A stretch of DNA of 64,000 nucleotides from an uncultured Chloroflexia bacterium (GTDB lineage: Bacteria; Chloroflexota; Anaerolineae; Anaerolineales; E44-bin32). Both the position numbers and the translations under genes were made by a program. Of this stretch, positions 13,259 through 53,228 are shown piece by piece; within the stretch, counting starts at the first letter, position 1, and every line of letters starts with the position of its first letter. The notes under the pieces were generated by a model that was not told the origin of the DNA, did not search any database, and saw only the letters and a program-made list of their open reading frames with translations. Where the stretch lies: the NCBI GenBank assembly GCA_963777165.1, contig CAVZPO010000027.1, positions 22,209-86,208 on the forward strand. Reading direction: 5' to 3'.

Positions 13259-13276
13259 TGTGGAATCATACCCAGA

Positions 13277-20457: not shown

Positions 20458-20496
20458 ACCGACTCTCAACCCCAGGGCCCCCACGCGATCGAGCCG

Positions 20497-21382: not shown

Positions 21383-21436
21383 CTCCCTGACCGCATCCAA
21401 CGACTGGGGAGTATCGATCTCCGCCATTTGGGGGAG
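21383..21436 (-). repeat. Intergenic box-plus-hairpin repeat, copy B (inverted, degenerate)
   Basis: The reverse complement reads CTCCCCCAAATGGCGGAG-ATCGAT-ACTCCCCAGTCGTTGGATGCGGTCAGGGAG. The box is conserved and the hairpin arms are mutated. Confidence 0.7.
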
Positions 21437-26572: not shown

Positions 26573-26821
26573 TGGCCCGCATTCGTCTTGGTGCCCAGGA
26601 ATCCCAAGGGCGACCGATGGACGACGGCGAAGAGGGTGACGAGAGGGTACTTTGGCCCCGGGTCATGGCGCTGGATCTCGCCTCCGTGACCGCACGGGTG
26701 ATGGTGGGCTTGATCGCCTGGGCCCTCAAGCCGCTGGCCTGGGTGGATCTTCTACCGCCCGCGCGGCGCGCCGGTCGTGGGCGTCACGCGCACCTCGACC
26801 ACGGATCATCGCACTCCATAG
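26571..26821 (+). pseudogene. YggT-like C-terminal paralogue or fragment, frame-broken near 26745
   Basis: ...LDLASVTARVMVGLIAWALKPLAWV, then (next frame) IFYRPRGAPVVGVTRTSTTDHRTP*. Positions 26749-26787 are nearly identical at the DNA level to 25817-25855. Confidence 0.4.
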
Positions 26822-26833
26822 CAGAGGGACGGC

Positions 26834-27007
26834 ATGGACATCGCCTCCGACAGATACAACTCGAAGGAAGACCGGCCGGGGGCGCTCTTGGCCCTGGTGC
26901 AGGCCGTCCGGGGCATGGTCGGGCGGCTGTACGGGTTCTTTGCCCTTACAGATGACGAGTGGTCGAACGTCGGCATCTACCTGGGGGGGATGAAGCAGGA
27001 CCGCTAG
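26834..27007 (+). CDS. Possible small protein (57 aa), unknown function
   Basis: Own translation: MDIASDRYNSKEDRPGALLALVQAVRGMVGRLYGFFALTDDEWSNVGIYLGGMKQDR. AGAGGGA lies upstream. No recognisable family. Confidence 0.3.
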   Translation: MDIASDRYNSKEDRPGALLALVQAVRGMVGRLYGFFALTDDEWSNVGIYLGGMKQDR

Positions 27008-36011: not shown

Positions 36012-36042
36012 CGAGTCGGAGTTCGGCGGCCAGGAGGGGTTC

Positions 36043-36783
36043 GTGACGAACAGGGAAGTGATCCGGGCCAAGGTCCGCCAGGCGGTGTATCGCACGCTCG
36101 GCCTGGAGCCGCACCTCGATCCCGCGCCCAGGCGCCGCCTCGTGACCGAGCACGACCTGCGCGGCCTGCCTTTCGGATCGGACTTCCAGGTTCCGGAAGC
36201 CGGCCTGATCACGCCCCTGGCCCGCCAGGTTGCCATGGATCGCCACATCACACTGCACAAGACATCCGCGCCGGCAACGACTACAAAGAAGCAAACGCCG
36301 CGCACACCCAATGTGGCCGCCGGAGGCAAGGCCGTCGCCATCGGCGCCGACCATGGGGGCTTCCAACTCAAGGAGACGCTCAAGGCCTACTTGCACGAGC
36401 TCGGGCATGAGGTCATCGACTGTGGGACGAACAGCACCGAGGCGGTCGACTATCCGGATTTCGCCCTGGCGGTGGCCGAACTGGTGTCGCAGGGGCGGGC
36501 CTGGCGCGGCATCTTGGTCGACGGCGCCGGCATCGGTTCGTGCATGGTTGCCAACAAAGTGCCGGACGTCAGGGCGGCCATGTGCTACGACCAGTCCACT
36601 GCCGTGAACAGCCGCGAGCACAACGACGCTAACGTGCTGACGCTGGGTGCGGGCCTGATCGGCGAGACGCTTGCCCGTCAGATCGTCAAGACCTGGCTCG
36701 AGACGCCGTTCGGCGGCGGCCGGCACGCGCGCCGCGTCGAGAAGATCATGGAGACCGAACGGCGCTTCCTGCGCAGGCCCTAG
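36043..36783 (+). CDS. rpiB: Ribose-5-phosphate isomerase B (RpiB/LacAB family) with an N-terminal extension of about 100 aa
   Basis: ORF 36043..36783. Core: [15 protein letters not shown]...[28 protein letters not shown]...[12 protein letters not shown]. Extension: amphipathic helix [16 protein letters not shown], then [10 protein letters not shown]...[17 protein letters not shown]. Confidence 0.85.
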
Positions 36784-36823
36784 GCAGCGGCGACGAAGGA
36801 CTCTGGAATTCCTAACGGGACGA

Positions 36824-37690
36824 ATGATGAAGCCGATTGACGAGAAGACACTGGATCGCATCATCGAGCAGATCACCAGCCAGGTGCTGCTCAGCCTGCA
36901 GGAGGAGCCGGCTGCGAAGGGCTCGCCTGCCCCCGCCCCTCTCTCGGCGCACGATTTCGTGCAGCACGCTCGTCCGGTGCTGAGCGCCGGCGCCGATCGT
37001 CTGGCCAGCACGCTGGGGATCGCGCCGACCGACAAGAGCCTGGCGCACACCATCGACCACACGCTGCTCAAGCCCGACGCCACGCAGGACCAGATCGCCC
37101 AGTTGTGTTTCGAGGCCCGCAAGTACGGCTTCGCCTCGGTGTGTGTCAACTCCTCCCACGTCAAGCTGTGCGCCGATCTGCTCAAAGGCAGCGGTGTCCC
37201 GGTGTGCACGGTCATCGGGTTCCCGCTGGGCGCCACGCCGACCGATGTCAAGGTCTTCGAGGCCCAACAGGCCATTCGCGACGGCGCCAGCGAACTGGAT
37301 ATGGTGATCAACGTCGGCGCGCTCAAGTCGCGGGAGTACGAGTTGGTGCGAGGCGACATCGCCGCCGTGGCCCGCGCCTGCCACGCCGGGAATGCCATTC
37401 TGAAGGTCATCATCGAGGCCGCCTTCCTGACGGATGAGGAGAAAGTGATCGCCTGCCAGCTGGCCAAGGTGGCCGATGCCGACTTCGTCAAGACCTCGAC
37501 CGGCTTCGGCCCCAGCGGGGCGACGCCGGAAGATGTCGCCCTGATGCGGCGCGTCGTCGGTCCGTCCATGGGGGTGAAGGCAGCCGGCGGCATCCGTACC
37601 TACGCCGATGCTCAGAAGATGATCGCCGCCGGCGCCAGCCGGATCGGCGCCAGTGCCAGCGTCAAGATCATTCAGGGACCTGAGAAGTAG
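36824..37690 (+). CDS. deoC: Deoxyribose-phosphate aldolase (DERA) with an N-terminal extension of about 60 aa
   Basis: ORF 36671..37690, Met at 36824. Core: [11 protein letters not shown]...[10 protein letters not shown]...VIGFPLGAT...[12 protein letters not shown]...[10 protein letters not shown]...FVKTSTGF. Extension: [21 protein letters not shown] plus a Pro/Ala linker. Confidence 0.9.
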
Positions 37691-37709
37691 CCGGCAAGGA
37701 GAAGCGCCC

Positions 37710-38348
37710 ATGGCCGTGGATCTAAGGACCTACATCTTTCTCGACAGCCTGCAGCTCCAGCACTCGGGCTTCCTGGGGACCGTTGCCCGGGGGTTCTTGC
37801 CCCTGCCCAACGACACCTCGCTGTGGGTCGAGATCTCGCCCGGGATCGAGATCAACCGCATCACCGACATCGCCCTGAAGTCGACCCGTGTCCGTCCCGG
37901 GATGCAGATCGTCGAGCGGTTGTTCGGGATGCTTGAAGTTCATCATGAGGACCAGGCCGAGGTGCGGGCCGCCGGGGCGGCCATCCTGCGGGCGCTCGAT
38001 CTTCAGGAATCGGATCGCATCAAGCCCAGGGTGGTGTCGAGCCAGATCATTCGCCACATCGACGCCCATCAGGTTCAGCTGATCAACCGCATGCGGCATG
38101 GCCACATGCTGTTGGCCGGCCAGACCCTGTACGTGTTGGAGGTCGAGCCAGCCGGGTACGCCGCCCTGGCCGCCAACGAGGCGGAGAAGGCCGCGGACAT
38201 CAACATCCTTGAGGTGATGGCCTTTGGCAGCTTTGGCCGTGTGTACCTTGGGGGTGAGGAACGCGACATCATGGCCGCCTACGGCGCGGCCGTGGGCGCC
38301 ATTGAAGGGGTGTCCGGGCGCGTGGTCGAAGGTGGCCGGCGCGACTAG
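37710..38348 (+). CDS. BMC shell protein, tandem-domain (BMC-T), divergent
   Basis: ORF 37653..38348. Met at 37710 follows AAGGAGAA. 212 aa with two BMC-like halves (...[22 protein letters not shown]... and ...[42 protein letters not shown]...). Confidence 0.75.
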
Positions 38349-38409
38349 GTCGAGGAAACCGTCGAGCGTAGACGTTCGAACTCATCCAACGAGTCATCAG
38401 GAGGCAACT

Positions 38410-38730
38410 GTGTCTGAAGAATACGGAGCAACCGAAGCGCTGGGAATGATCGAGACCAAGAGCTACGCGGCCATGGTCGAGGCGGCCGACGCGATGGTCA
38501 AGGCGGCCAAGGTCGAGCTCGTCGCCTACGAGAAGACCGGCGGCGGGTTTGTCACGGCCATCGTGCGCGGCGACGTCGCCGCGGTCAAGGCGGCCGTGGA
38601 AGCCGGTGCGCGCGGGGCGGAGAAGGTCGGCGAGGTCGTCGCCATTCACGTCATCCCGCGCCCGCATGTCAATGTGGATCGCACGCTGCCTCTGGGCCGC
38701 GGCCCTGCCGCCGGCAAGGGCGGCAAGTAA
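38410..38730 (+). CDS. BMC shell protein, hexamer type (BMC-H, PduA/EutM-like)
   Basis: ORF 38224..38730. GTG start at 38410 follows AGGAGG. Sequence: [58 protein letters not shown]. Confidence 0.9.
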
Positions 38731-38838
38731 CCGGACCCTGTGGCGGTTGTCCCAGGCGGTCCCCGGCCCGTTCCGGGGGCCGCCCGGGCGGACGCACGCC
38801 GCCTCGCCGAGAGGTATGGGCGTCGAATGGAGTAGCCA

Positions 38839-39138
38839 ATGCTGCTGGGCAGAGTAGTGGGCACGCTCGTCGCCACGCGCAAGGAGCCGTCGCTCGAGGG
38901 GCTGAAGTTCCTCGTGCTGCGTCAGCTGGACATCGACGGCAAGGAGATGTCCGGCTACCGGGTGGCGGCCGACGCGGTGGGGGCGGGCCTGGGTGAAGTG
39001 GTCCTGTACGCCACGGGCAGCTCGGCGCGCATGACCACCGTCACCGACAAGCGTCCGTGCGATGGCGTGATCATGGCCATCGTCGACACGCTTGAGGTGG
39101 ACGGCGTGGTGACCTACGACAAGGCCAGGGTCGGGTGA
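38839..39138 (+). CDS. BMC vertex protein (BMC-P, EutN/CcmL family), copy 1
   Basis: ORF 38839..39138: [31 protein letters not shown]...[10 protein letters not shown]. Confidence 0.9.
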
Positions 39139-40640
39139 TGGGCGACCGGCGCGACCGTGGGGCGCAGGAGCATGCCGTGCTCGATGACGCCCGGATTGAC
39201 GCGATCATCGAAAGGGTCATGGCCGAACTGCGCCAGGCGGAGAGCGGCCCGCATGAGCCGCTGCCGCCCGCCAGTCCAGCCTTGCCGTCCGCGCCGGCTC
39301 CCGATCTGCGCCATGCGGACAACCTGTTCCCGGATGTCGACAGCGCCGTGCAGGCCGCCCGGCGGGCCTTTGAGCAGCTGGGCGGGCTGCCCCTGGCGTT
39401 GCGCGAGCGCATGATCGGGGGAATGCGGCGGACGGCACGCGAGAACGCCCAGGTCCTGGCGCGTCTGGCCTGGGAAGAGACCGGCATGGGGCGGCTCGAG
39501 GACAAGATCGAGAAGAACCTGCTCAACGCCAACAAGGCGCCCGGTACGGAAGTCCTCACCCCGACAGTCTGGACCGGGGACGACGGGATGGCGCTCGTGG
39601 AGTACGCCCCGTACGGCGTCATCGGCTCGATCACCCCGAGCACCAACCCGACCTCGAGCGTGATCTGCAACGCCATCAGCATGGTCGCCGCCGGCAACTC
39701 GGCGGTGTTCAACGCGCACCCGGGGGCCAAAGGCTGCACGAACCTGACGGTGCAGCTGCTCAATCAGGCGATCGTCGAAGCCGGCGGGCCGGCCAACCTG
39801 GTGTGCGCCATTGCCGAGCCGACGATCGAATTGGCGCAGGAGCTCATGCACCACCCGACGGTGAACCTGCTGACGGTGACCGGTGGGGAGGGCGTGGTGC
39901 ACGCCGCCATGCAGAGCGGCAAGCGCGCCATCTGCGCCGGCCCGGGCAACCCGCCGGTCGTGGTGGATGAAACGGCCGATATCGACGAGGCCGGGCGCGG
40001 GATCGTGCGCGGCGCCTCATTCGACAACAACATCGTGTGCATCGTCGAGAAGGAGACCTTTGCCGTGGCGACGGTCGCCGAGGCCCTCAAGCGCTCGATG
40101 CTCGCTCACGGCGCCTACGAGATCGATGCCGGCCAGCTCGAGCGGCTGATGAAGGTCATCTTCACCCAGGTGCCGCCGCCGGGGAAGGTCGGGCCGCTGA
40201 ACAAGTCCTTCATCGGCAAGAGCGCCGCCGTGCTGCTCAAGGAGATCGGCATCACCGTCGGCGACGAGATCCGTCTGATCGTGGCCGAGGTCGCCGCCGA
40301 TCACCCGCTGGTCGTGACCGAGCAGATGATGCCGATCATGCCGCTGGTGCGCGTGCGCCATGCCGACGAAGGCATCGACCTGGCCAAAAAGGTGGAGCAC
40401 GGCTACCGGCACACGGCGGTGATGTACTCCAAGAACCTCGATCATCTCAGCCGCATGGCGCGGGTCATGGACTGCAGCATCTTCGTCAAGAATGCCCCGT
40501 CGCTGGCAGGTCTGGGCGCCGGCGGGGAGGGGTTCTGTTCCTTCACCATCGCCAGCCCCACCGGCGAGGGCATCACCAATCCGATCAGTTTCAGCCGCCT
40601 CCGGCGCTGTACGCTCAAGGATGCGTTCCGAATCGTATGA
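39135..40640 (+). CDS. CoA-acylating aldehyde dehydrogenase (PduP/EutE-like) with an N-terminal encapsulation-peptide-like helix
   Basis: ORF 39135..40640, intact, 501 aa. N-terminus [18 protein letters not shown] plus a Pro-rich linker. Core ...[26 protein letters not shown]...[13 protein letters not shown]. Confidence 0.9.
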
Positions 40641-40676
40641 GACCGATGCGCCCATTCTGCAGCAAGGCGATGACCG

Positions 40677-41267
40677 ATGATTGAGCCCGCACTCGCTCTG
40701 GTCGAGTTCTCCAGCATTGCCGCCGGGATACAAGCCGCCGATGCGATGGTCAAGCGCGCCCCGATCGACGTGATCAAGGCGGGGACCGTGCACAACGGCA
40801 AGTACCTGGTGCTGATCGGCGGCCTGACAGCGGATGTCGAGGAGTCGCTGGCCGCCGGCCGGCAGGTCGGCGCCGATGCAGTCCTGGATTTCGTCTTCCT
40901 GCCGCACGTGCATCCCGAGGTCGTCGAGACGATCGGCGGAGCGCGTGCGCCGCAGGCCAACGACGCGCTGGGCGTGATCGAGACGACGACGGCGGCCGGC
41001 GCCATTCACGCCGCCGATGCCGGCGTCAAGGCCGCCATGGTCCGCCTGGTCGAGGTGCGCCTGGCCGACGGCCTGGGCGGGAAGGGTATCGTCCTGTTCT
41101 CCGGGCTGGTCGCCGACGTCGAAGCCGCCATTCAGGGCGGCGTGGGCGTCCTCGAACGGCCGGACCTGCTCGTGCGCCAGGTCGTCATCCCGCAGCTGCA
41201 CCCCGGCATGTGGGAGAACGTCGGCGACGCCACACGCTTCGGCCACCGCGTGCTGGGCCACCTATGA
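40677..41267 (+). CDS. BMC shell protein, tandem-domain (BMC-T, PduT-like arrangement)
   Basis: ORF 40677..41267. Two BMC domains: ALALVEFSSIAAGIQAADAMVKRAPIDVI... and ALGVIETTTAAGAIHAADAGVKAAMVRLV... Confidence 0.85.
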   Translation: MIEPALALVEFSSIAAGIQAADAMVKRAPIDVIKAGTVHNGKYLVLIGGLTADVEESLAAGRQVGADAVLDFVFLPHVHPEVVETIGGARAPQANDALGVIETTTAAGAIHAADAGVKAAMVRLVEVRLADGLGGKGIVLFSGLVADVEAAIQGGVGVLERPDLLVRQVVIPQLHPGMWENVGDATRFGHRVLGHL

Positions 41268-41596
41268 AATTCGCCCGCGTGCAAGGCACCGTCGTGGCCA
41301 CCCGCAAGTACGAGGGGCTCGAGGGCGTCAAGTTCCTGGTCGTCCAGCCGCTGGACGAGGATCTGCGACCCGTCGGCGGTCCGCAGATCGCAGCCGACGC
41401 CACGGCCCAGGCCGGGCCGGGGGAGCTGGTCCTCGTCGTCGGCAGCCGCGAAGCGGCGCAGGCCCTGCCCGTGGTGTTCGTCCCGGTCGATCTGGCCATC
41501 ACCGGCATCATCGACGAGGTGGAGGTCGAGCGCGGGCTGCGCCGCACACAGCCGACGGCCGTCTGGCACAGTCCGCCGTCCGAGGACGAGGACTGA
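41264..41596 (+). CDS. BMC vertex protein (BMC-P), copy 2
   Basis: ORF 41210..41596, Met at 41264 (ATGA overlap): MKFARVQGTVVATRKYEGLEGVKFLVVQPLDED...LVLVVGSREA. Confidence 0.9.
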   Translation: MKFARVQGTVVATRKYEGLEGVKFLVVQPLDEDLRPVGGPQIAADATAQAGPGELVLVVGSREAAQALPVVFVPVDLAITGIIDEVEVERGLRRTQPTAVWHSPPSEDED

Positions 41597-41598
41597 CG

Positions 41599-41871
41599 AT
41601 GTACATCGGCAAAGTGATCGGGACGGTTGTTTCGACGATCAAGATCTCGCACCTCGATGGCCGCAAGCTGCTGCTCGTGGATCAGCTCGATCTGCAGGGG
41701 AATGAGACCGGGGCGTACGATATCGCCGTGGACGTCGTCCAGGCCGGGCCGGGCGATACGGTGCTGGTGATCGACGAAGGCAACGGCGCGCGCCAGATCC
41801 TTCAGCTCGACCCGGGGGCGATCCGGGCGGTGATCGTGGGCGTGGTCGACGAGGTGGCGCTGGGGATGTAG
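41599..41871 (+). CDS. BMC vertex protein (BMC-P), copy 3
   Basis: In-frame tail of ORF 41017..41871 from Met at 41599: MYIGKVIGTVVSTIKISHLDGRKLLLVDQLD...[11 protein letters not shown]. Confidence 0.9.
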   Translation: MYIGKVIGTVVSTIKISHLDGRKLLLVDQLDLQGNETGAYDIAVDVVQAGPGDTVLVIDEGNGARQILQLDPGAIRAVIVGVVDEVALGM

Positions 41872-42001
41872 CAGCTAGCGACTAGCGGCTGTCAGCTATC
41901 AGCGGTCAGCAAACAGCCAAAGGGCAAGCGGCAAGTCGCAGGTGGCCTGGAGCTCGCGAGGCGCGAGGTAGGGCCAGGCAAGGAACGGGAGGGGAATCGG
42001 C

Positions 42002-42022
42002 GGGGCCAGCTGAGCTGGCCCC
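42002..42022. terminator. Bidirectional hairpin GGGGCCAGC-TGA-GCTGGCCCC between convergent BMC-P3 and the tpiA fragment
   Basis: Read directly. Perfect 9-bp GC stem. No clear U tract. Confidence 0.45.
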
Positions 42023-42052
42023 GATGGCTTCCGTCGGATCCCCGACTTCGGG

Positions 42053-42151
42053 CTAGCGACTGCCGGACGCCTCGACCGCACGCCTCACCAGGTCGACAAA
42101 GTCGGGCTTGAGGCTCGCTCCCCCCACCAGCGCCCCGTCGATCTCCGGCAT
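42053..42151 (-). pseudogene. tpiA 3' fragment (last ~32 codons only)
   Basis: Own translation: MPEIDGALVGGASLKPDFVDLVRRAVEASGSR*. Homology to the full tpiA at 49068 stops abruptly at 42151. Confidence 0.85.
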
Positions 42152-42284
42152 GGCCCTTTCCCCCAGGCGGTGGGCGATCCGATTCTGCTGAGAAGCTTCC
42201 GTCTTGGGCCGTGATCTGCGGGGCGCGAGGAGGAGGATGGCGCCTCGCTCCGGGAGCGTATCCGCGCGGCATAGCGCGGGCGGG

Positions 42285-43358
42285 TCAGCAGGGATCGCGT
42301 GTGCCGGCGGTGTTTCCCTTTGATCTGCTGTTTCTCAGGTCATAGAAGGTGGCCACGAGCGCATCTAGTTCAAGTCTCGCCGATGCCTCGTAGCGGAGGT
42401 CGATGTGGATTTCGCCAGGCAAATGGATCGAGAGGACCACGTCCCCTTGACCGGCGCCGGCAATCGACAGATGGTCAATCCTCCTCAGAGGCATGTAGGT
42501 CCCACACCCCGCCGTATCTTTCGCGCCCGCCCGGGGAGGGTACCTCCCGGATGGTGATGATCTCGCGGTTTGTGAGGATGATCGCATTCGTCGGGGACAC
42601 CATCCGTCGGTATGTCCGGCCGAATGCGGCTCCGATCTTGACCTGAGATCTCCGGCTGAAGAATCGCCTGCTGGATCTCTTCGTCTCCTGACCAGGCTTC
42701 GCTTTGCATAGTTCATGAACTTGAAGTTGCGTTTCCCCCAGGCATCGAAGGGGTCTTGCCCTCCGGTTCGGGGAACTTTCGACACTTCCGCGACCCGACC
42801 GAATTCTCGTCACAATGGGAGAGAAGAGATACTCGGTCACCGCGTTGAAGCGGACTGGGGTGCGAGCAGGTGCGAGCCCGTCTCCTTCCAGGCCCATGAT
42901 CTCGAGCCGGGCGTCCAGAAGCCTGGAGCTGACTTCGACGCAACTGATCATGGAGATCGAGATAACTGCGCACGTCGATCTTGTGGCCGCGCTTCTCGAG
43001 AATCAGAATCTCGTCGGACGTCGCCCAGACCATCTTCTCGATCTCCCGGTGGAGGAAACCCTCGTAGGAAGGCGCGATAACGACAAGCGGGAATGGCACC
43101 CCCTTCGCTTGCAGAGGTCGGAAGAAGCTGCTATACGCGGCAGGCACGTCGGCATAGGAGGCGATCGACCTCGCCCAAGATCGCTGCGCCTGCTCGAATG
43201 GGGTCAGGCCGACGGGTACTGGACCGCGCTAGGGCGCGTCTGTGATTCCAGATCGATCGCAGGCCTGCGAGGATCCTCGAGGCGCAATGCACAATCCTCC
43301 GCGGAGGGCGAACTCCGCAGACCGTGGCGTCGTGCAGGCACGAAGCGCAGAGCGCCAC
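42285..43358 (-). pseudogene. Hypothetical protein (Cys-rich N-terminus plus PH-like repeats) broken by at least 5 frameshifts
   Basis: Pieces in ORFs 42285..42785, 42475..42951 and 42713..43147 and in the frame of 43131..43760: VALCASCLHDATVCG...; FFRPLQAKGVPFPLVVIAPSYEGFLHREIEKMVWATSDEILILEKRGHKIDV...; VSPTNAIILTNREIITIREV...; RIDHLSIAGAGQGDVVLSIHLPGEIHIDLRYEASARLELDALVATFYDL. Confidence 0.5.
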
Positions 43359-43468
43359 AGGCCTTCGGCCTGCGGGTCTGGCTGGAGGAGTGTTGACTAT
43401 CGGGCAGCCAGTTCCGCCCAGTGGCGCTGACGCCCCCTCGCGAGCGAGGGCCTTGTCCAGCTGTTGGT

Positions 43469-44116
43469 CTACCTCTGGCCGTACTTGCTCTGGTAACGGT
43501 GGTGCAGGGCCGCCACGGCTTCTGCCGGGATCTCGTCGGGGTGACCCAGCTGCAGCGCCAGCCACGAGGTCCGGGCCACATCCTCGACCATCACGGCGGC
43601 CTTGACGGCGTCTTCCGCGGTCGGGCCGAGGGTGAACACGCCGTGGTTCTTGAGCAGGACAGCGCAGGAGGGGCCGATCGAACTCCACGACGACCCGGCC
43701 GATCTCTTCGCCGACCGATGGGCGCGAACCCCCCGCAGGGGATCGGTCCGCCGAACTCATCGGCGTGAGCCGTCAGATAGACCGGGATCGACCGGGCATT
43801 GGCGGCGAAGGCCGTGGCATAGGGGGAATGCGTATGAACAATTCCACCGACGTCCGGACGGTGCCGGTAGATGTAGAGGTGGCTGGCCGTATCCGAGGAG
43901 GGCAGCAAGTCCGAGTCCCGAACTTGTCCCTCGAGATCGACGATCACCATGAGCTCGGGACGAAGGTCCTCATAGCGAACTCCGGACGGTTTGATCACCA
44001 CCAGCCCCGTGGCCGCATCTCGGGCGCTGACGTTGCCGCTCGTCCAGGCGACGAGCCCGTTCCTGGGCAGCTCCTGGTGCAGGCGGAACAGGCTGTCGGC
44101 GCAGGGCTTCAAGCAT
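43469..44116 (-). pseudogene. araD: L-ribulose-5-phosphate 4-epimerase (class II aldolase fold), with at least 3 frameshifts
   Basis: ATG at 44116 (MLEALR). Middle part in ORF 43591..44328: LFRLHQELPRNGLVAWTSGNVSARD...VIKPSGVRYEDL...SSDTASHLYIY...GGIVHTHSPYATAFA. C-terminus in a third frame (own translation ...AEDAVKAAVMVEDVARTSWLALQLGHPDEIPAEAVAALHHRYQSKYGQR*). Confidence 0.75.
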
Positions 44117-45805
44117 GGACGACCTCCGCTCCGGCTGCGCACCTCGGCTCTCCAGCGCTTCAGCCGTTTGAGGACATCATTCTCGCCGCGCCCGAAGTAA
44201 TCGTGCAGTCGCAGATAGTCGCTGTAGATCTCAGTGTAGGCTGCGTGGTGCTGCGGGTCCGGCAAGAAAGCCTCGTCGTTCAACCGAGCCATACGGCTCG
44301 GCCGCGGCGTAGATCGTGTCATATCCACCCAAACGTGCGCCGGCGGCCACGGCGCCGAACATCGCTGATCCCAGGGCAGGCGTCTGTTTCGAAGAGCTGA
44401 CTTGGATAGGCAAGCCGGTGACGTCGGAGAAGATCTGCATCAGCAGCCTGTTCTTCTCCGGCAATCCACCGCAGGCCACGAGCTCATGGATCGGGACGCC
44501 GTTCTGCTGAAACGTCTCAACGATCACTCGTGTGCCGAATGCCGTGGCCTCGATCAAGGCCCGGTAGATCTCCTCGGGCCTGGTGGCGAGGGTCGCGCCG
44601 AGCAGCAGGCCCGCCAGATCCACATCGACCAATACCGAGCGATTGCCGTTCCACCAATCGAGGGCCAGCAGCCCACTTCCCCCGGCGCGAGGGCGGCGGC
44701 CTTCCGTTCGAGCAGGGTGTGGATGTCGATCCCTTCTTCGGCTGCTTCGCGCTCGAGGCAGCGCCGGAACGCAGTTCTCCACGAACCAAGCGAAATGGTC
44801 GCCCACGCATGATTGCCCCGCCTCGTAGCCAAAGAATCCGGGGATGATCCCATCTTCCACGCACCCGCACATGCCCGGCACAAGGTGCTCTTCCTTGCCG
44901 CAGCACCATGTGACAGATGGAGGTGCCCATGATCATGACCATGCGCCCGGCGCTCCGTGACGGTCGTGGCCGGCACGGCGACGTGGGCGTCGACGTTGGC
45001 GATCGCCACCGCCGTGCCAGGCATCAGGCCCGTCCAAGCGGCGGCCTGCTGTGTGAGACCGCCGGCTTTCTCGCCCACAGGCCGAATGTCACGCGACATC
45101 TTCGCTTCTACGACGGTGCCGAACTCGGGGTTCAGGGCGCCGAAGTACGCCGGCGGAGGAAAGCCTTCGCGCTTGGACCACAGCGCCTTGTAGCCGGCCG
45201 TACACGAGTTGCGGGTCTCGGCGCCCGTCAGCTGCCAGACGACCCAGTCTGCCGCCTCGATCAGCCGATCTGCGGCGGCGTAGACCGCGGGCGCTTCGTT
45301 CAAGATCTGCAGGGACTTGGAAAAGAACCACTCCGAGGAGATCTTCCCACCGTAGCGATTGAGCCAGGCTTGCCCCGTCTCCCGGGCCACGCGGTTGATC
45401 TCGTCCGCCTCGGGCTGTGCGGCGTGGTGCTTCCAGAGCTTCACCCAGGCGTGCGGCTCGCCACGCCACTCGGGCAGCGTGCAGAGCGGTGTCCCATCGG
45501 ACGCGAACGGGAAGCATGGTGCAGGCAGTGAAGTCGATCCCCACGCCGATGACGTCGCTGGGGAGACACACCGGCGTCCTGGAGCACCTGCGGGATGGTG
45601 GCCCGAAGCGTGCGAAGGTAGTCCTCCGGGTCCTGCAACGCCCAGTCAGGCGCAAGCGGGAGACCCGTTTCCGGCAAGCGTCTCGTCGATGACCCCGTTC
45701 GAGTAGGGGTACACCGCAGTCGCCACCTCGTGGCCGGTGCCGACATCGACCAAGACGAGCCCTACCGGACTCTGTCCCGAAATCCACACCGATGGCGTAC
45801 TTCAT
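44110..45805 (-). pseudogene. araB: Ribulokinase (FGGY family), with at least 5 frameshifts
   Basis: N-terminus MKYAIGVDFGTESGRA (start at 45805, ORF 45089..45823). Internal pieces in ORFs 44554..45444 (KLWKHHAAQPEADEINRVARETGQAWLNRYGGKISSEWFFSK...) and 44231..44881 (...[48 protein letters not shown]). C-terminus ...[27 protein letters not shown] in ORF 43591..44328. Confidence 0.75.
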
Positions 45806-45847
45806 CCGAGTGCACCTCCACAACCAACTCGAGCGGCAAGCGCCGCG

Positions 45848-46710
45848 CTAACCGGTGGCTCCGCTTCCTGGGTGATGATAGATATCCCAGTCCATGTACT
45901 TTCCAAGACCCTCTTGCAGGATCGAGGCACAGCGCGACGGGTTGATGGCTACATGATGTTCGAAGCCTTGCTCGCAGATGTGCGTCAGCAGATCTCTGCA
46001 AGCTGGTCGATGTGAACGACGCCGTAGCCGCCAAAGGTCCGCAAGGGATCGTTCGTCAGCTGGCCTTCGCCGAAGTAGGCCCGGATGCTGTCCGCGGAGT
46101 GTCATCGGGGGAAACGCGGCAGTAGGTGAAGGGTGTTTCCCGAACGCGACCGACGATGGTCCCATACGTGTTCTCTTTGCCGACCGTGCCGGCGATGATG
46201 GCCTGATAATCCATGGTCGGGATGTCCTCGGGGGCGATCCCTTCCTGGACGAAGATGTCCTTGGGGAGATTGGAGCAGTGGAAGATGACGGCTTTGTCCG
46301 GATCGTCTCCGTAGTTGTTGTTCCAATCCACGATCGCACTGGGCTTCCCCGTCGCCAGGACCATGGCGTACATGCCCACAAGTCCGGCGACGTCCGTCTC
46401 ACACGCGGAGGGCATGAGGTTGTTGCTCATCATGCTCATCAGGGTGCACGGCACGACGCCGTAGAACTCCTCCATCGCCGTCCAGCATTGCAGGGCGGTC
46501 GCCACCACCTCCGTCTCCTGCATCCAGCCCTCGATGGCAACCCCAAGTTTCGCCATTCTGCGTCAGGATCAAGGGTGGCACGCGGCCGGTCGAGACATAA
46601 GCCATAATCTCATCGATCTTGTGTTTGACCGAAGGCTCGCTGTCGCCGAGCTTCAGCGCCCGGCCGAAGATCTCAGAGAGATCGACCGTCTCGACCGAGA
46701 TGCCGGTTGA
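45848..46710 (-). pseudogene. FucI-family sugar isomerase (araA position), 5'-truncated and frameshifted; paralogue of 2509..3927
   Basis: ORFs 46056..46556 (AKLGVAIEGWMQETEVVATALQCWTAMEEFYGVVPCTLMSMMSNNLMPSACETDVAGLVGMYAM...VDWNNNYGDD) and 45848..46402 (...ICEQGFEHHVAINPSRCASILQEGLGKYMDWDIYHH). The first ~260 codons are absent. Confidence 0.7.
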
Positions 46711-47727
46711 CCGCCCGTCAGCGACGGTCTGCAGGTTTGGATCCGAAGCGCGGAAGACGCCTTCCTGCGAGGGCACCCACTTGGGCAGCTCCTCGCCGTT
46801 GGCGGCCTTCAGGGCGGCTTCATACACCTGCGGCGCGAGCAGCGGGTTGCACTCCACCGCCACGTTCACCTCTCCGGCGAGCATCGCCTTGAAGGCGCCC
46901 GCCGTCGCATCGAAGGTCAGGACCATCACGTCCTTGCCCGGAACGAGGCCGGCTTCCCTAAGGGCCTCGATCGCACCCAGGCCCATCTCGTCGTTCTGGG
47001 CAAAGATGCCGTTGACGTCCTTGCTTTCCTTCAGCCAGGCCTCGGTGACGGCCTTGCCTTCGGTAGCGCTCCAGTTACCGGTCTGGCTGTTGGTGATGGT
47101 GATTCCGCATGCGCCCATGCCTTCGCGGAACCCCTGGCCGCGGTCCTTGGCGGCCGACGAACCCACATTCCCGACCAGTTCCCAGACGACCTTGCCGCGT
47201 GCTGCCTTCCAGCAGCTTGCACATCTCCTCGGCGCCCTTGCGGCCTTCCAGCGCGAAGTCGGAGCCGATGTAGGTGGCGTACAGGTCCTCGGGGGCGTCA
47301 ATGCGCCGATCTTCAAGGACGACGATCTTGCCGGCGTCCTTGGCTTCCTTGAGAACATCCTCCCAGCCCGTGGTCTCGAGGGCGGCCAGGATGATCACGT
47401 TCACCTCAGGATCCTGGATGAACTGGCGAAAGCCCGCCACTTGATTGGCCAGGTCGTTCTGCGAGTTGTAGAACTTCAAGGTCAGGCCCAGCTGCGTTGC
47501 GGTCTCCTTGAAGGAGGCTGTATTGGCTGCGCGCCAGCCGCCCTCGGATCCGGTCTGCAGGAAACCCACGACCAGGTCCGAGTACTCGCAGTTTGGTGAG
47601 CACGCCAAGCCGGCGGCTGGTGCCGCAGGGGCTACCGGGGCCTCGGTCGCCGGGGCGCGGGGCGCAAGCGCCCAGGGCGAATGGCGGCAACGAGGAGAAC
47701 AAACGCAATCGTCTTGATGCGGGACAT
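46711..47727 (-). pseudogene. Periplasmic sugar-binding lipoprotein (RbsB/YtfQ-like), frameshifted; its 3' end abuts the truncated isomerase
   Basis: Start MSRIKTIAFVLLVAA at 47727. Pieces in ORFs 47075..48013 (...DLVVGFLQTGSEGGWRAANTASFKETATQLGLTLKFYNSQNDLANQVAGFRQFI...) and 46399..47358 (...VWELVGNVGSSAAKDRGQGFREGM...IFAQNDEMGLGAIEALREAG...). Confidence 0.7.
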
Positions 47728-47922
47728 GTCGATGCTCCTTCTCTCGATGTATTGCCCTTGCGAATTGCGGGCGGAAACGAACGATCCTTTGTCGACTTCG
47801 TGCGGTCTTCGCTGATGAGCCCGTGCTTCGGTCCTCGCGCGCGACGACGGACACGACGAGTGGGCTGGCGGCTCTGGCGATCTTCTCCTCTCCCCTGCGT
47901 AGCCTCCTTTCGTGTTCCTGGT

Positions 47923-48722
47923 CTATGAGGACGGTCGGATGGAGCTCTGTCGGACGACCAGAGTCGGGGACAAGATGACCGGCGTGGGAGCCGGTGCGGC
48001 GGTGCCTGTCCACTGGAATCCGATCATCCGGATCACTTCCTCCACGGCGATCTTTCCCAGTGCATGTTGGTCCTGCTCGATCGTCGTGAGAGGTGGCCAG
48101 TAGTACGCGGACTCGGAAATGTTGTCGAAACCGACAACGCCCAGGTCCCGCGGGATGCTGATACCCCTCTGACAGGCCGCTTGCATGACGCTCAGCGCCA
48201 TCTGGTCGTTGGCGACGAAGACCGCATCCATCGTCGGGTACTGTCTGGAAGAGCCGCTCGATGGCCTCGGCGCCGCTGGCAGAAGACCAGTTCCCCTCGA
48301 CCGAAGCCTTCCGCTTCTGGCTCCAGGCCAGCTTCCCTGAGGGTGTCCTCCCAGGCGGCTTTACGCTGTCGGGCCTCCCACCAATCCAGCGGTCCTGAGA
48401 TGTGGCCGATTTGCCGGTAGCCCTGATCGAGCAAATGGGCGACGGCCAGGCGGGCGCCAGCGTAGTTGTCGATCGAGACCGCCTTGAGGTTCTTGCGAGG
48501 CTCCATCGTCAAGGAGACGATCGGGACCTCTGAATCCAACGTCAGCCGATCGACGAACTCCCGGTTCGCACCGATCTCGGGGATGGCCCAGATGACGCCG
48601 TCGACATGGCGCGAGTGGAGCGTCTGGAAGATCGGCAAGACGTCGTTCGAGTTGAACTGGGGAAGCTCCTTCAGAGAAGCGAGTAGCCCAAACCTCGGCT
48701 GCGCCAGCGATGCCGTCAAGGA
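47923..48722 (-). pseudogene. LacI-family regulator lacking its N-terminal HTH (cut at repeat R2) and frameshifted near 48210
   Basis: ORFs 48192..48719 (...PIVSLTMEPRKNLKAVSIDNYAGARLAVAHLLDQGYRQIGHISGPLDWWEARQR) and 47923..48231 (DAVFVANDQMALSVMQAACQRGISIPRDLGVVGFDNI...). No DNA-binding domain lies upstream. Confidence 0.75.
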
Positions 48723-49166
48723 GGGCGTACGATATCGCCGTGGACGTCGTCCAGGCCGGGCCGGGCGATACGGTGCTGGTGATCGACGAAGGCAACGGCG
48801 CGCGCCAGATCCTTCAGCTCGACCCGGGCGCCATCCGGGCGGTGATCGTCGGCGTGGTCGACGAGGTGGCGCTGGGGATGTAGCAACTCGCAGCTAGCGA
48901 CTAGCGGCTGTCAGCTATCAGCGGTCAGCCAACAGCCAAAGGCAAGCGGCAAGTCGCAGGTGGCCTGGAGCTCGGAGGCGCAGGTAGGGCCAGGCAAGGA
49001 ACGGGAGGGGAATTGGCGGGGCCAGCTGAGCTGGCCCCGATGGTTACCGCGGATCCCCGACGTCGGGCTAGCGATTGCCGGACGCCTCGACCGCACGCCT
49101 CACCAGGTCGACAAAGTCGGGCTTGAGGCTCGCTCCCCCCACCAGCGCCCCGTCGATCTCCGGCAT
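48723..49166 (+). repeat. Direct repeat R2 (444 bp): BMC-P3 3' fragment (~53 codons), terminator region and 3' end of the intact tpiA
   Basis: See R1. The BMC-P fragment reads ...[52 protein letters not shown], identical in protein to 41599..41871. Confidence 0.9.
49018..49038. terminator. Second copy of the GGGGCCAGC-TGA-GCTGGCCCC hairpin
   Basis: Read directly, inside R2. Confidence 0.45.
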
Positions 49167-49847
49167 CGCCATGAACTCGGCGATGTTGTCGGCCGTCACG
49201 CTCCCCCCATACTGGACGCGGACTGCCTGAGCGACCTCCTCACCGAAGCGGTCGGTGATCGGTCCCCGGATCGAGAAGGCGATGACCCGGTTGGCATCCG
49301 CCGGCGTCGCTGCCTTGCCTGTACCGATGGCCCAGATGGGTTCGTAGGCGATCACACTTCGCGCTACCTGAGCGGCGTCAACGCCCTCGAAGGCGCCGGC
49401 GACCTGGCCGCTGACCCAGGCGTGTGTTTCCCCGGCCTCCATCTGCTCCAGGTTCTCCCCGACACACACGATGGGCGTCAGATCCCTGGCGACCGCCGCC
49501 CGCACCTTGCGGTTGATGGCAGTGTCGGTCTCGAGGGCCCCGCCGGCGGCACGGCGCTCGGAATGGCCGAGGATGACGTAGCGGCACACGCCGGCCAGCA
49601 TCGCCGCCGAAATATCTCCCGTATGCGCGCCCTTGTCCTCGAAGTGCATGTTCTGCGCGCCCACGGCAATCGACGTCGCCGCCAGCGCCTCGGCCACCAC
49701 GGCCAGGACCGTGAACGGCGGGCACAGGACGCGATCCGCGCCCTCGATCTCCGAGAGCGGAAACCGGATCCGGCGCACGAACTCAAGGGCTTCGTCCGTG
49801 CGCCCGAGGTTCATCTTCCAATTGGCCGCCAGGACGGGTCGACGCAT
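49068..49847 (-). CDS. tpiA: Triosephosphate isomerase
   Basis: ORF 49068..49880(-). Likely start MRRPVLAANWKMN at 49847. Sequence: ...GAQNMHFEDKGAHTGDISAAML...ILGHSERR...VCVGE...IAYEPIWAIGTGK...YGGSV. Intact. Confidence 0.9.
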   Translation of the reverse strand: MRRPVLAANWKMNLGRTDEALEFVRRIRFPLSEIEGADRVLCPPFTVLAVVAEALAATSIAVGAQNMHFEDKGAHTGDISAAMLAGVCRYVILGHSERRAAGGALETDTAINRKVRAAVARDLTPIVCVGENLEQMEAGETHAWVSGQVAGAFEGVDAAQVARSVIAYEPIWAIGTGKAATPADANRVIAFSIRGPITDRFGEEVAQAVRVQYGGSVTADNIAEFMAMPEIDGALVGGASLKPDFVDLVRRAVEASGNR

Positions 49848-50310
49848 GCTACTTGGACTCATGCCATAGGATGGTGACATTCACAGCGATGCGACTCCTT
49901 CTCAAGTGCGTGCCCTCGATCGGGCCGTGCTCCCGAGGCGGCGAGTTCCGCCGGCAGTCCCCTTCCTTGCGGGAGCGATTGTACCCCTGCCTGTTTGGAA
50001 TCAAGAAGACAGGCTGACACACTTGCCCACGTCCCGCCCACCCTTCCTCCTGCGCGGTGTCCGCCTTGGGCATCGTGTAATCATGTCGCTACCGGAAACA
50101 GCTCGCGGCCAGGTGAGGGAGGACGATCTTGAGCGGGCGTCTCATCCCGGCCTCGCCCGGATCTCGAGGGAGAGTTGAGACGGTGATCCTGGGCTACTCC
50201 TACAAGTCACCGATAATAGACCTTCATTGTCTGGACACGCTTAGGTTCGCGATGTAGAATGACGGACCTTCGCTCAAGAAGCCGATCGGCTGGACGAGGA
50301 TCTACCCGCT

Positions 50311-51003
50311 TTGCGCCACATTTCCATTCAGGCCAACGCTCTGACGCGCACCTATCGCCGGGGCTCCGAAGACGTGCATGCCCTAATGGATGTGACGCTT
50401 GCGATCCCGCCGTCCGCCTTTGCCGTCGTCCTCGGGCCCAGCGGCAGCGGCAAGTCCACGCTGCTCAATCTCATGGGGGGTATCGACCGGCCGACGAGCG
50501 GGCACCTGAGGGTCGATGGCCTCGAGCTCCACACCTTGACCGAGCGGCAACTCGACGGCTACCGCCGGGACTACGTCGGCTTCGTCTTCCAGTTCAACAA
50601 CCTGCTCCCCAACCTGGACGCGCTGGAGAATGTTGCCTTGCCGCTGATCGCCCAGGGACGCAGTTGGGCCCAAGCGAGGGATGAGGCCAGGACGCAGCTG
50701 GCGGCGCTCGGCCTGGGCAGCCGGGCAAGCCATCGGCCGGAGGAGCTTTCGGGGGGCGAGCAGCAGCGCGTGGCCCTGGCTCGGGCTGTTGTTTCCAGGC
50801 CGGCCCTGGTCCTGGCGGATGAGCCGACCGGCGACCTTGACCTCGAATTGGCCGAGATCGTGCTCGACCTGATGTCGTCCCTCAATCGTGATCTGGGCGC
50901 GACCTTCGTGATCGCCACCCACAATCCGCGGCTGGTGTCGCGTGCGACGCAAGTGATCGAACTCACCAATGGACGGATGACTCCCCCGGCGACGCAGGCA
51001 TGA
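50311..51003 (+). CDS. ABC transporter ATP-binding protein (MacB/LolD/FtsE-like)
   Basis: ORF 50311..51003: GPSGSGKSTLLNLMGGIDRPTSG...LSGGEQQRVALARA...LVLADEPTGDLD. Confidence 0.9.
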   Translation: MRHISIQANALTRTYRRGSEDVHALMDVTLAIPPSAFAVVLGPSGSGKSTLLNLMGGIDRPTSGHLRVDGLELHTLTERQLDGYRRDYVGFVFQFNNLLPNLDALENVALPLIAQGRSWAQARDEARTQLAALGLGSRASHRPEELSGGEQQRVALARAVVSRPALVLADEPTGDLDLELAEIVLDLMSSLNRDLGATFVIATHNPRLVSRATQVIELTNGRMTPPATQA

Positions 51004-52140
51004 TCCATCTGGCGCTTCAGGACCTCCGCCACGACCTGCTCACCTTCGGGTTCAGTGTGCTTGGCACCGGGGTCCTGGTCTTCGCCTTCCTGCTCCTGAT
51101 CCCGCTTTCTCTGGCGGTCACCCGCATCGGCGAGGCGGGGGGCCTGCCCCAGAATCTGATCCTCATTGAACGGGATGCCCTGCAGCCCGAGCAAAGCAGG
51201 ATCGCTCCCAGCCTGGCGGAGAGCGTGTCTGCCATCCTCGGCGACCGCCTGGACCGCGTCGACCCGGTGATCTTCCGCATCATGCGCGTGGAGGAGCCAT
51301 CCGATCCAGCTGCGCGGCGTCGCCTTCGAGTCGTGGGTGACTACGTTTCGCCTGCGGCTCCTCGAAGGAGCATGGCCATCCAGCTCCTCTGAAGTCGTGG
51401 TCGGTCAGCTGGCAGCCCAGGGCGGCGGCTGGCAGACCGGAAGCGAAATCAGCATCTATGGCCGGCGCTTTCGAGTCGCCGGCATTGCCGACGGGCCGGG
51501 GACCAAGACGCAGACGATCTGGATGTCTTACTCGGCCGCCAGCGCGCTCTTCGGCCGGGAGAAGGGCGCCCAACTCCTCGTGGCCCATCTGCAACCGTCG
51601 GCGGATCCGCTTGTTTCCAGGCAAGACCTGGAGGATGGGCTCCGGTCGATCGGAGCCGAGTACGATGCTTACTTCGAAGACGCCCTCCTGCGCGAGTATG
51701 GCGCGGCGCTGAACGATCTCCGTTCGCTGGCGCTCTTGACGGCGGTCATCGCCATCGCCGCGGTGACTGTCGGATCGCACAATCTGGCCTGGCTCGCGGC
51801 CGAGGAGAGGATGCGCTTGCTCGGCGTTCTGCGTGCGGTTGGATTCGACCGCCGAGCCGTCGGCCGATACCTCCTCTTCCGCGCCGGAGTGATCTCCGTG
51901 GCCTCGTACCTCCTTGCTCTGGCAGCGGCGATCCTCTTCATCCGGTTGGGGGCTGGGCCGAAGGACCTCGCCATCGGAGGAACCCAGACCGACTTGAGTT
52001 CGAGTTCGGCCATGGCCGTGCTGGGTCTGCTTCTAGCGTGCGCCGCAAGCCTTGCGGGGACCTGGCTGTCGGCACGCCATATCCTGAGAGCCTCTCCGGC
52101 ATCCTTGCTAGGGAGAGGACCGGGGAGCAGCTTCGCGTGA
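51000..52140 (+). CDS. FtsX-like ABC permease, with one frame break near 51300-51340
   Basis: ORF 51000..51392 (MIHLALQDLRHDLLTFGFSVLGTGVLVFAFLLL...) joins ORF 51337..52140 (...RLLEGAWPSSSSEVVVG...ERMRLLGVLRAVGFDRRAVGRYLLFRAG...). Confidence 0.8.
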
Positions 52141-53228
52141 GCGTAGCCGCGTGGCTTGCGCTGCGTGATCTCTCCGTCCACCGGCGCCAGGCCATCGCGC
52201 TGGGGATGGTGTTCGCGATGGCCGTCACGGCCTTCGTAGCACTGGGCAGCTACCGGCTGACGCTCTTGAGGGATTATCGGCCGGCGCGGGAAGACCAACT
52301 CGTGATCCAGGAGACCCAGTCGTTCGCCGAGTTCTACGGCAGCCGGCTCTCCCCCGAGATCGCGGTCGTGCTCGAAGACCTCGGTTTTCCCGGGGCCGTG
52401 GCGGAGATCCACGCCATCGTGGGGACATCGTTGGAGAATGCCGTGCTTCTCAAGGGTGTCGACCTGGCGCGCTACCCAGAACTGGACTCCTATGTCATCC
52501 GCGCCGGCCGAGGACTCGAACCTGGCGATCCTCCACGTCGAGCGATGATCGGTACACGTCTGGCAGAACGGCTGGAGGCCGCGCCGGGGGACACGATCCA
52601 GTTGCGCGGGCGGCCCTTCGAAGTGATCGGCGTTTTCGAGACCGACTCGTACACGGAGAACGAGGCCTGGGTTCCGCTGGCTGGGGCGCAAGAGCTGCTC
52701 GGTTGGGGTCAGGACGTCTCCCTGTATGTCGTCACGGACGATGGCCGGTTGACACCGGGGCAACAACTCCTCGACGGCGTGTCGGTCGTCCGCCGGGGTG
52801 AGTTGTGGTCGACGTTCCCGCGGCAGTGGGATGGTCTGATGGCCCTGATCGGCACCGTGACGCAGGCGATCGGGCTGGCGGCCGCCTTCTCCCTCGCCGC
52901 CATGTTGTGGAGGCTCGCCTGGAGGAGGAGGCGGCAGATCGCCGTCCTGCGCAGCCTGGGTTTCAGCCGGACCGTCTTTGCGATCTACCTGGCCGTGCAA
53001 GGCGCTTCGGTCGCATTCACTGGTGGGGCGTGCGGCGTCCTGGCTGCGCTGGCGCTTCTTCGGTGGGTGCGACCCACGCTGGCGGGCGTCAGTCTCCGCC
53101 CGCACCTCACGCCAGATCTGTTGATATCGACCGGTGTCTGGTTGGGATTTCTAACCCTGCTGAGCGTCGTGGTCCCCGTCTGGGCGTTGGGCCGCAGACG
53201 CGTTGCCGAGCTCATGATCGGCGAATGA
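52137..53228 (+). CDS. FtsX-like ABC permease (second)
   Basis: ORF 52038..53228. GTG at 52137 overlaps the upstream stop. Sequence: VSVAAWLALRDLSVHRRQAIALGMVFAM...RRQIAVLRSLGFSRTVFAIYLAVQG. Confidence 0.8.
   Translation: MSVAAWLALRDLSVHRRQAIALGMVFAMAVTAFVALGSYRLTLLRDYRPAREDQLVIQETQSFAEFYGSRLSPEIAVVLEDLGFPGAVAEIHAIVGTSLENAVLLKGVDLARYPELDSYVIRAGRGLEPGDPPRRAMIGTRLAERLEAAPGDTIQLRGRPFEVIGVFETDSYTENEAWVPLAGAQELLGWGQDVSLYVVTDDGRLTPGQQLLDGVSVVRRGELWSTFPRQWDGLMALIGTVTQAIGLAAAFSLAAMLWRLAWRRRRQIAVLRSLGFSRTVFAIYLAVQGASVAFTGGACGVLAALALLRWVRPTLAGVSLRPHLTPDLLISTGVWLGFLTLLSVVVPVWALGRRRVAELMIGE

Follow-up and report, generated by a model that had tools for sequence, protein, structure and literature searches.

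A shortened L-arabinose operon at a duplicated target between a microcompartment locus and tpiA in an Anaerolineae bacterium: probable ancient acquisition, later deletions and merged haplotypes

The sequence considered here is a stretch of 64,000 nucleotides (the window) of contig CAVZPO010000027.1, whose host is an Anaerolineae (Chloroflexota) bacterium. Within it, BMC-P3, the last shell gene of a bacterial microcompartment (BMC) locus, is separated from the triosephosphate isomerase gene, tpiA, by a segment (X, 42152-48722) that lies between two imperfect direct repeats, R1 and R2 (Table 1). The genes of X read on the minus strand, and those that remain are split over overlapping open reading frames (ORFs) in different frames. 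The locus raises the questions of how the two genes came to be parted and how the damaged appearance of X is to be understood. The reading that we consider probable is that X is the shortened remnant of an L-arabinose operon at a duplicated target, resulting from an ancient duplicative acquisition that was followed by deletions, and that its frameshifts come from the merging of two haplotypes.

R1 and R2 stand in direct orientation with an offset of 7,012 bp, and their homology stops abruptly at either end. Repeat search and pairwise alignment recover exactly the boundaries and lengths reported in the initial annotation, and its figure of roughly 96% identity is in agreement with the 428 identical positions in 448 columns (95.5%) that are found when gap columns are counted (428 of 437 aligned columns, 97.9%). 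Domain matches (EutN_CcmL, TIM) also bear out that each interrupted gene is complete at one copy only. The copies differ by nine substitutions (at 41817, 41820, 41838, 41911, 41998, 42028, 42030, 42047 and 42060) and five indels, namely one of 7 bp (at about 41872-41876, just 3' of the BMC-P3 stop codon) and four single extra bases in R1 (at 41922, 41957, 41965 and 42034). Four of these 14 differences fall in the 260 coding base pairs and ten in the 181-bp spacer. As had been noted, those within the BMC-P3 tails, three in number, are synonymous substitutions, and both tails encode the same 52 residues. The single substitution in the tpiA part alters the penultimate residue, such that R1 encodes GSR and R2 encodes GNR. 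It had also been proposed that the synonymous variants do not reflect decay in place, and this agrees with the occurrence of the R2 states in L089, L088 and L084 and of the R1 states in L086, L087 and L090, in each case as functional BMC-P3 alleles (the L numbers designate the loci compared). For polarising the differences, the L001 contig is too short and its spacer too diverged; L089 and other close contigs have been used.

Both spacers contain a perfect 9-bp G+C hairpin (42002-42022 in R1, 49018-49038 in R2; about -22 kcal/mol), which is predicted to extend to a stem of 10 pairs. A consensus promoter/terminator scan finds nothing significant in 41500-49400, and no T-tract terminator in the spacer; of the earlier label 'terminator spacer', the hairpin stands, and the terminator function is interpretation. 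A weak 7/14-bp periodic tract (GCTGACA/GCTAGCN-like) follows the BMC-P3 stop codon in both copies (41872-41925 and 48884-48940). Its unit number differs among strains, and the 7-bp indel between R1 and R2 adjoins this tract, in the same repetitive stretch.

The arrangement of BMC-P3 and tpiA in related genomes is informative about the ancestral state. The two genes are directly convergent, 9-150 bp apart, in nine of the 12 closest GTDB species-representative genomes (L002-L004, L007-L012), and they are also directly convergent in the closer metagenome contigs L084 and L086, as the initial annotation had predicted for relatives. This shared convergence identifies the adjacency of BMC-P3 and tpiA as ancestral. 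In three still closer contigs, from independent assemblies, an L-arabinose operon of about 11-12.6 kb is found beside the microcompartment locus. In L089 and in the contig that comprises L085 and L088, the full operon lies between tpiA and BMC-P3, at the site and in the orientation of X.

The genes of the intact operon encode, in order, a LacI-family regulator, a sugar-binding protein, an ABC (ATP-binding cassette) ATPase, two permeases, a 322-aa protein, a 486-aa isomerase, a ribulokinase, an epimerase and a 331-aa protein of unknown function. The naming as an L-arabinose operon is based on the ribulokinase and the epimerase, which exceed curated NCBIfam cut-offs as judged from the L089 orthologues (araB, 562 aa, 762 bits against TIGR01234 with a cut-off of 583; araD, 331 bits against NF005123 with a cut-off of 251). 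A canonical AraA is not among the operon genes, the 486-aa isomerase matching only Fucose_iso_C and, weakly, sulfoquinovose isomerase; AraA domains are present in the more distant operon L082. The conserved 331-aa (L089 10825-11820) and 322-aa (L088 5776-6744) proteins have no Pfam or NCBIfam match.

The nearest relative is L089, a 494-kb contig of a metagenome-assembled genome. The window from 46708 to 36000 is collinear with L089 7422-18117 in one block of 95.5% identity, which covers X, the X/R1 junction, R1 and the microcompartment genes. The junction between the operon and the tpiA fragment (...AAGGGCC/ATGCCGGAG..., with the slash at the joint) is common to the window, L089 and L088. Moreover, the window and L089 (P0247) both have GNR at the end of the functional tpiA and the ancestral GSR in the tpiA fragment, which places the duplication before the separation of these two lineages. 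On these comparisons, the arrangement appears to be inherited within the sub-clade and not to result from a recent 6.6-kb integration.

It had been suggested that the repeats mark a Campbell-type integration of DNA from a related strain. In its recent form, this would be a single-crossover integration into this genome of a circular DNA of about 7 kb, consisting of R plus X. The order left-R-X-R-right, with each interrupted gene whole at one copy, is favourable to this possibility, and so are the coding differences between the copies, which are synonymous or conservative and match the functional-gene alleles of other strains. Nevertheless, L089 and L088, in which the operon is intact at this site, align collinearly with the whole left part of X and with its junction to R1, X is a deletion derivative of this resident operon rather than a separately acquired piece, and the GNR/GSR pattern dates the duplication before the window/L089 split. 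A recent event of this kind is thus very unlikely. What survives of the earlier interpretation is that an operon interrupts the ancestral adjacency and that a Campbell-like origin is plausible for the ancestral event; what does not survive is the acquisition of 6.6 kb by this genome. Indeed, the same arrangement with intact genes in relatives (L085/L088 and L089) is what the initial annotation had said would point to an ancestral organisation instead of an insertion.

Compared with the intact operon, X lacks 6,077 bp (L089 1345-7421), a gap that is also evident against L085/L088, L090 and L081. This removes the stop region of the sugar-binding protein gene (its last 3 codons), the ABC ATPase, both permeases, the 322-aa gene and the N-terminus of the isomerase. 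The sugar-binding protein gene, the NCBIfam assignment of which is made on its L088 orthologue, has in addition a 32-bp deletion at about 47658. When aligned to the full-length LacI of L085 and L081, the LacI gene of X is found to lack its promoter/operator and its first 247 nt, which encode the helix-turn-helix (HTH) domain, and at the X/R2 junction (48722/48723) it is joined to the BMC-P3 fragment at a 4-bp microhomology, GCCC. Without these parts, the window does not hold a complete arabinose gene set. The 6,077-bp and 32-bp deletions are found only in this contig.

Table 1. Positions of the repeats, of the remnant operon genes and of the flanking genes in the window
Feature	Position	Strand	Description
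SPU-type bacterial microcompartment locus	35154-41871	+	Pfam; 95-98% nucleotide identity and collinear with L089
BMC-P3	41599-41871	+	EutN_CcmL, E 4e-24; whole only at R1
R1	41711-42151		441 bp; last 161 bp of BMC-P3 (41711-41871), 181-bp spacer, dead 99-bp tpiA 3' fragment
tpiA 3' fragment in R1	42053-42151	-	99 bp, dead
Non-coding, downstream of the operon's last gene	42152-42284	-	85-91% identical to L089, L088, L090 and L081
Homologue of the 331-aa protein of unknown function, operon's last gene	42285-43287	-	Frame broken about five times; intact ORF in L089 (10825-11820)
L-ribulose-5-phosphate 4-epimerase (araD) copy	43469-44116	-	Frame breaks; Aldolase_II, E 4e-35
Ribulokinase (araB) copy	44109-45805	-	Three overlapping ORFs; FGGY_N and FGGY_C matches
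Isomerase, C-terminal ~285 codons (of 486 aa)	45848-46708	-	Fucose_iso_C family
Internal deletion junction, 6,077 bp	46707-46711	.	L089 1345-7421 absent from the window
Periplasmic sugar-binding protein gene, YtfQ-like	46711-47727	-	Peripla_BP_4; frame breaks; NCBIfam on L088 orthologue
LacI-family regulator gene	47899-48722	-	Matches to the ligand-binding domain only
R2	48723-49166		444 bp; dead 161-bp BMC-P3 3' fragment (48723-48883), spacer, last 99 bp of functional tpiA
tpiA, functional, 259 aa	49068-49847	-	TIM, E 7e-82; whole only at R2

A mobile-element reading of X is ruled out, as X has no integrase, transposase or inverted repeats. Pfam searches of its long ORFs, and the gene tables of the intact L085/L088/L089 operons, contain no integrase, recombinase, excisionase or transposase, and there are no inverted repeats of at least 40 bp in 38000-53000. 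With these features and a duplication of 441 bp, X resembles neither an insertion sequence nor a composite transposon. A second copy of X is not present within the window, which counts against a local tandem duplication; the paralogues of X genes found there are an intact 536-aa isomerase (2509-4119, about 50% amino acid identity) and a LacI gene (12248-13303).

The frame breaks in X have an unusual spectrum. When privacy is judged against L089, L088, L090 and L081, the window has at least 25 private single-base insertions in X; the R1 spacer has a further four and the R2 spacer none, and the private single-base deletions number only 2-4. The rate of private +1 insertions is 4.2/kb in 41872-48722 compared with 0.35/kb in 11.4 kb of flanking sequence (p = 3e-9). 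The left part of X has 20 insertions that are strictly private, and 16 of them duplicate the alternative allele that relatives have at the adjacent site (null 11%, p = 1e-12), and for 12 of these 16 this is an L081-type allele. The same signature is seen in contigs of the same accession series (7 of 8 such insertions in L090, 4 of 5 in L081); their 'contig_N' names may be a sign of Flye. Of the window-private substitutions in X, 52% match L081, at positions spread over the full length of X, against 11% of the L089-private ones. The error-rich block corresponds to one R+X period, with its first error at 41922 and its last at 48696, and R2 is clean.

The allele-duplicating insertions and the interleaved L081-type alleles indicate that, in X and in the R1 spacer, the contig does not give the sequence of one molecule but blends two divergent haplotypes of the operon, one of which resembles L089 and the other L081. 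The frameshifts look like, for the most part, +1 'both-allele' consensus errors from merged reads of these haplotypes. The four single-base indels between R1 and R2 are probably errors of the same series, and the genuine differences between the repeats would then amount to about nine substitutions and the 7-bp change. This resembles haplotype-collapse errors in long-read metagenome assemblies, where indels are likewise concentrated in a strain-variable segment and both alleles stand in tandem at polymorphic sites. The initial annotation had named a chimeric assembly of two co-existing strains as an alternative; two strains do seem to be blended in X and in the R1 spacer, but the R-X-R order is not a chimera. 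Outside X, a MacB/FtsX-type permease gene at 51000-52140 is split (ORFs 51000-51392 and 51337-52140) by a private +1 C at about 51294, its L086 orthologue being a single ORF of 379 aa; this is probably another consensus error. A crude model of third-position G+C content (GC3) by frame indicates possible frame changes at 1-2250 and 25960-27002.

These data also bear on the possibility that X is a truly decaying pseudogene array, in which real frameshift mutations followed inactivation and R1 and R2 diverged in place. The truncated LacI, the loss of 6 kb and the frame breaks in every remaining gene have the look of such decay. Bacterial pseudogenes have a known deletional bias, and the excess of one-base insertions over one-base deletions in X is the opposite of this. 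Furthermore, 80% of the tested insertions copy a neighbouring site's alternative allele, four such insertions are in the R1 spacer and none in that of R2, and substitutions still fall mostly at third codon positions. Over the three codon positions, the window-private substitutions (21:17:62) are distributed as in the intact operon of L089 (22:10:62), so that a prolonged phase of relaxed selection has not occurred. Real decay as the cause of the frameshifts is rejected on the substitution spectrum and the allele-duplicating insertions, and the pseudogene reading as a whole is extremely unlikely.

For the origin of the arrangement, the following course of events is proposed. An ancestor of this sub-clade of Anaerolineae would have gained the operon between tpiA and the last shell gene of its SPU-type locus, R1 and R2 being the target (the BMC-P3 3' end, the hairpin spacer and the tpiA 3' end) duplicated by the acquisition. 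In the first step, operon DNA with a copy of tpiA-spacer-BMC-P3' would enter through one homologous crossover, or through a duplicative event of equivalent effect, after which copies of tpiA would flank the operon on both sides. In the second step, a microhomology-mediated deletion of about 1 kb (about 995 bp) would remove most of the BMC-side tpiA and leave the 99-bp fragment of R1, a state common to the window, L089 and L088. In the third step, in the lineage of the window, the 6,077-bp internal deletion and the loss of the LacI promoter and 5' end would inactivate the operon. The ancestral adjacency, the intact operon at this site in relatives, the shared junction and the two extra deletions are directly observed elements of this scheme.

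The second step can be visualized from L090, a variant in which 315 unique bp and then a full-length tpiA lie between the operon and BMC-P3. In L090, GGCAATGCC sits where the other genomes have the operon/tpiA-fragment junction, and GGC(C/G)ATGCC occurs 99 bp before the tpiA stop codon, an 8-of-9-base microhomology (pattern GGC(A/C)ATGCC with tpiA). A deletion of about 995 bp from an L090-like arrangement would generate the observed junction. The 315-bp segment has no homologue in any locus compared. As tpiA is needed, and as the functional copy of the others, with its native upstream region, is on the far side of the operon, the simplest precursor has tpiA-spacer-BMC-P3' on both sides. In the region upstream of tpiA (window 49880-50310, compared with L086 9053-10000 and with L087), strains vary, a 261-bp segment of L086 and a 222-bp segment of L087 being absent in the window and in L085.

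The proposed event is similar to Campbell-type integration in that direct copies of the target flank the insert with each interrupted gene complete at one copy, in that L090 links the operon to a full tpiA-spacer-BMC-P3, possibly the BMC-side product, and in that the operon would be lost, and BMC-P3 and tpiA made neighbours again, by recombination between the repeats. It differs in that no circular contig, circular donor, vector or plasmid functions are seen, in that the event is ancient and concerns several lineages, and in that later deletions have left only 99 bp of tpiA at one end of the insert and 30 or 161 bp of BMC-P3 at the other. The repeat around the intact operon of the L085/L088 contig (343 columns, 80% identity) has a near-identical tpiA part and first 80 bp or so of spacer, followed by two different spacer alleles, a pattern that is compatible with a crossover and also with later allele replacement. 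With integrase-mediated genomic islands (attL/attR), the locus shares an accessory block at 3' gene ends, direct repeats that regenerate these ends and presence/absence among strains; unlike in such islands, genes for an integrase, recombinase, excisionase or transposase are absent both from X and from the operons that are intact, and its repeats of 320-441 bp are much longer than att cores. As in homology-facilitated illegitimate recombination and microhomology-mediated deletion, the junctions here have microhomologies of 4-9 bp (GCCC at 48722/48723, GGC.ATGCC at 42151/42152) beside long true homology. These mechanisms usually result in insertion with loss of target and not in its duplication, and here they best explain the secondary trimming, not the original acquisition.

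The operon itself may have moved between lineages. It is 97.7% identical in L085 and L090 (96-98% when L090 1-11965 is compared with L085/L088), whereas the tpiA/BMC flanks are only 85-90% identical (L090 12280-17595), which suggests recent horizontal exchange of the operon. This fits the idea of an integrase-free mobile cassette, an operon that would travel among Anaerolineae strains with a target copy of 0.3-1 kb, would integrate by a single RecA-type crossover and would be excisable via its repeats. We regard this idea as possible but doubtful. A scan of JGI (Joint Genome Institute) metagenomes with LacI finds 80 loci, and homologous operons in these metagenomes are located in other genomic contexts.

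Several observations weigh against the ancient duplicative acquisition proposed here. The precursor with two tpiA copies is hypothetical, and none of the 80 JGI loci has tpiA or BMC-P3 upstream of LacI, such that an ancestor with a long BMC-P3 fragment and a full LacI has not been found. The R copies are 98% alike in the window and only 80% in L085/L088; the similarity in the window would require gene conversion, allele replacement or polishing by reads of another strain. On the tpiA side, L085 has about 30 bp of BMC-P3, then the promoter and the full LacI, and the window has 161 bp and a truncated LacI, so that these structures are not interconvertible by one deletion. It is possible that a longer ancestral fragment was trimmed independently, or that repair was templated by the intact BMC-P3. 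The X/R2 junction, which joins 161 bp of BMC-P3 to nucleotide 248 of LacI, is in no other assembly examined. As the consensus of X is blended, a minor haplotype may be the source of this junction, of the 6,077-bp and 32-bp deletions and of the LacI truncation; a chimeric read is a less likely source.

A further possibility is that the specific structure of this contig is an assembly artefact. The real strains would then have either no operon or the full operon, and the collapsing and polishing of two or three co-existing haplotypes, or a chimeric long read, would account for the 6-kb deletion, for the BMC-P3'/LacI' junction and for the near-identity of the repeats. This possibility gains from the demonstrable blending of X and the R1 spacer, from the error-rich block that matches one R+X period while R2 is clean, from the uniqueness of the X/R2 junction and of both deletions to this contig, and from L081 (ERZ25039502 contig_266488), a 12,867-bp contig with the operon only, the last base of which corresponds exactly to window 42152 at the X/R1 junction. 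The end of L081 is of the kind expected where an assembly graph breaks at a boundary that varies among strains, in this case in another sample. On the other hand, junctions with only 0-4 bp of homology can arise in overlap-based assembly only if they are present in one read or more. Independent assemblies of other samples bear out the placement, the orientation and the X/R1 junction, and the gene calls of the public record (P0001, P0259 and P0241) agree with the window sequence. An artefact of this extent is therefore considered unlikely, and the ancient acquisition with later deletions and haplotype merging is retained as the probable reading.

The microcompartment locus that borders the operon starts with genes for a GntR/UTRA regulator, an RpiB-family protein and a DeoC-family aldolase, which are followed by those for a CsoS1D-like BMC-T, BMC-H, BMC-P1, an aldehyde dehydrogenase, BMC-T, BMC-P2 and BMC-P3. 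SPU-type loci are defined by DERA and aldehyde dehydrogenase genes together with BMC-H/T/P shell genes, RPI (PF02502) commonly being adjacent (PMC11585597), and the corresponding Pfam families (PF01791, PF00171, PF00936, PF03319 and PF02502) are all found at 36043-41871. The gene content matches that of the Chloroflexi SPU6 locus, and triosephosphate isomerase is a known associated enzyme of this sugar-phosphate type (PMC11585597). With the SPU6-type Chloroflexi locus (PMC11585597; PMC8217296), the window has in common GntR, RPI, DERA, aldehyde dehydrogenase and BMC-H/T/P genes with the TPI gene adjacent; it is unlike this locus in that, in this sub-clade, the arabinose operon or its remnant parts the TPI gene from the shell genes. 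At 36043-37690, the RpiB-family protein has an N-terminal extension of about 97 aa, and the DeoC aldolase domain starts about 125 residues into the longest possible ORF, the true start of which is uncertain. Judged from the sequence, these N-terminal stretches fit the putative encapsulation extensions of SPU6 enzymes (PMC11585597).

Elsewhere in the window, a second, apparently intact sugar-catabolic cluster is located on the minus strand at 990-13303. It encodes a Fucose_iso_C-family isomerase, a class II fructose-bisphosphate (FBP) aldolase, a xylose-isomerase-like TIM-barrel protein, an FGGY kinase, an SIS/sugar-binding regulator, a GFO/IDH/MocA oxidoreductase, a PfkB kinase and a full LacI (12248-13303). 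A region of about 6 kb at 15930-21990 is partly of lower G+C content (58-59% at 16-19 kb), with a weak third-position G+C signal and few long ORFs with high GC3. Rfam searches of the full window give no match to rRNA, tRNA-like or other families.

Taken as a whole, the locus is a case of ordinary strain-level structural variation combined with a problem of assembly quality, and the practical point outweighs the biological one. What seemed to be a pseudogene array with an imperfect repeat is largely a consensus artefact, and +1 insertions in which the alternative allele of the adjoining site is repeated provide a simple, sequence-only signature of haplotype blending in long-read metagenome assemblies. 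In blended regions, frameshift-based pseudogene calls and estimates of repeat divergence are not to be trusted without the reads. For the biology of these uncultured Anaerolineae, the locus is a modest case of an accessory sugar-catabolic operon that enters, spreads and is lost at a conserved junction bordering a microcompartment locus of the sugar-phosphate type, intermediate forms of its gain and loss persisting in different strains. If the operon were indeed a mobile cassette, soil populations would be polymorphic for the empty, full and decayed states of this site.

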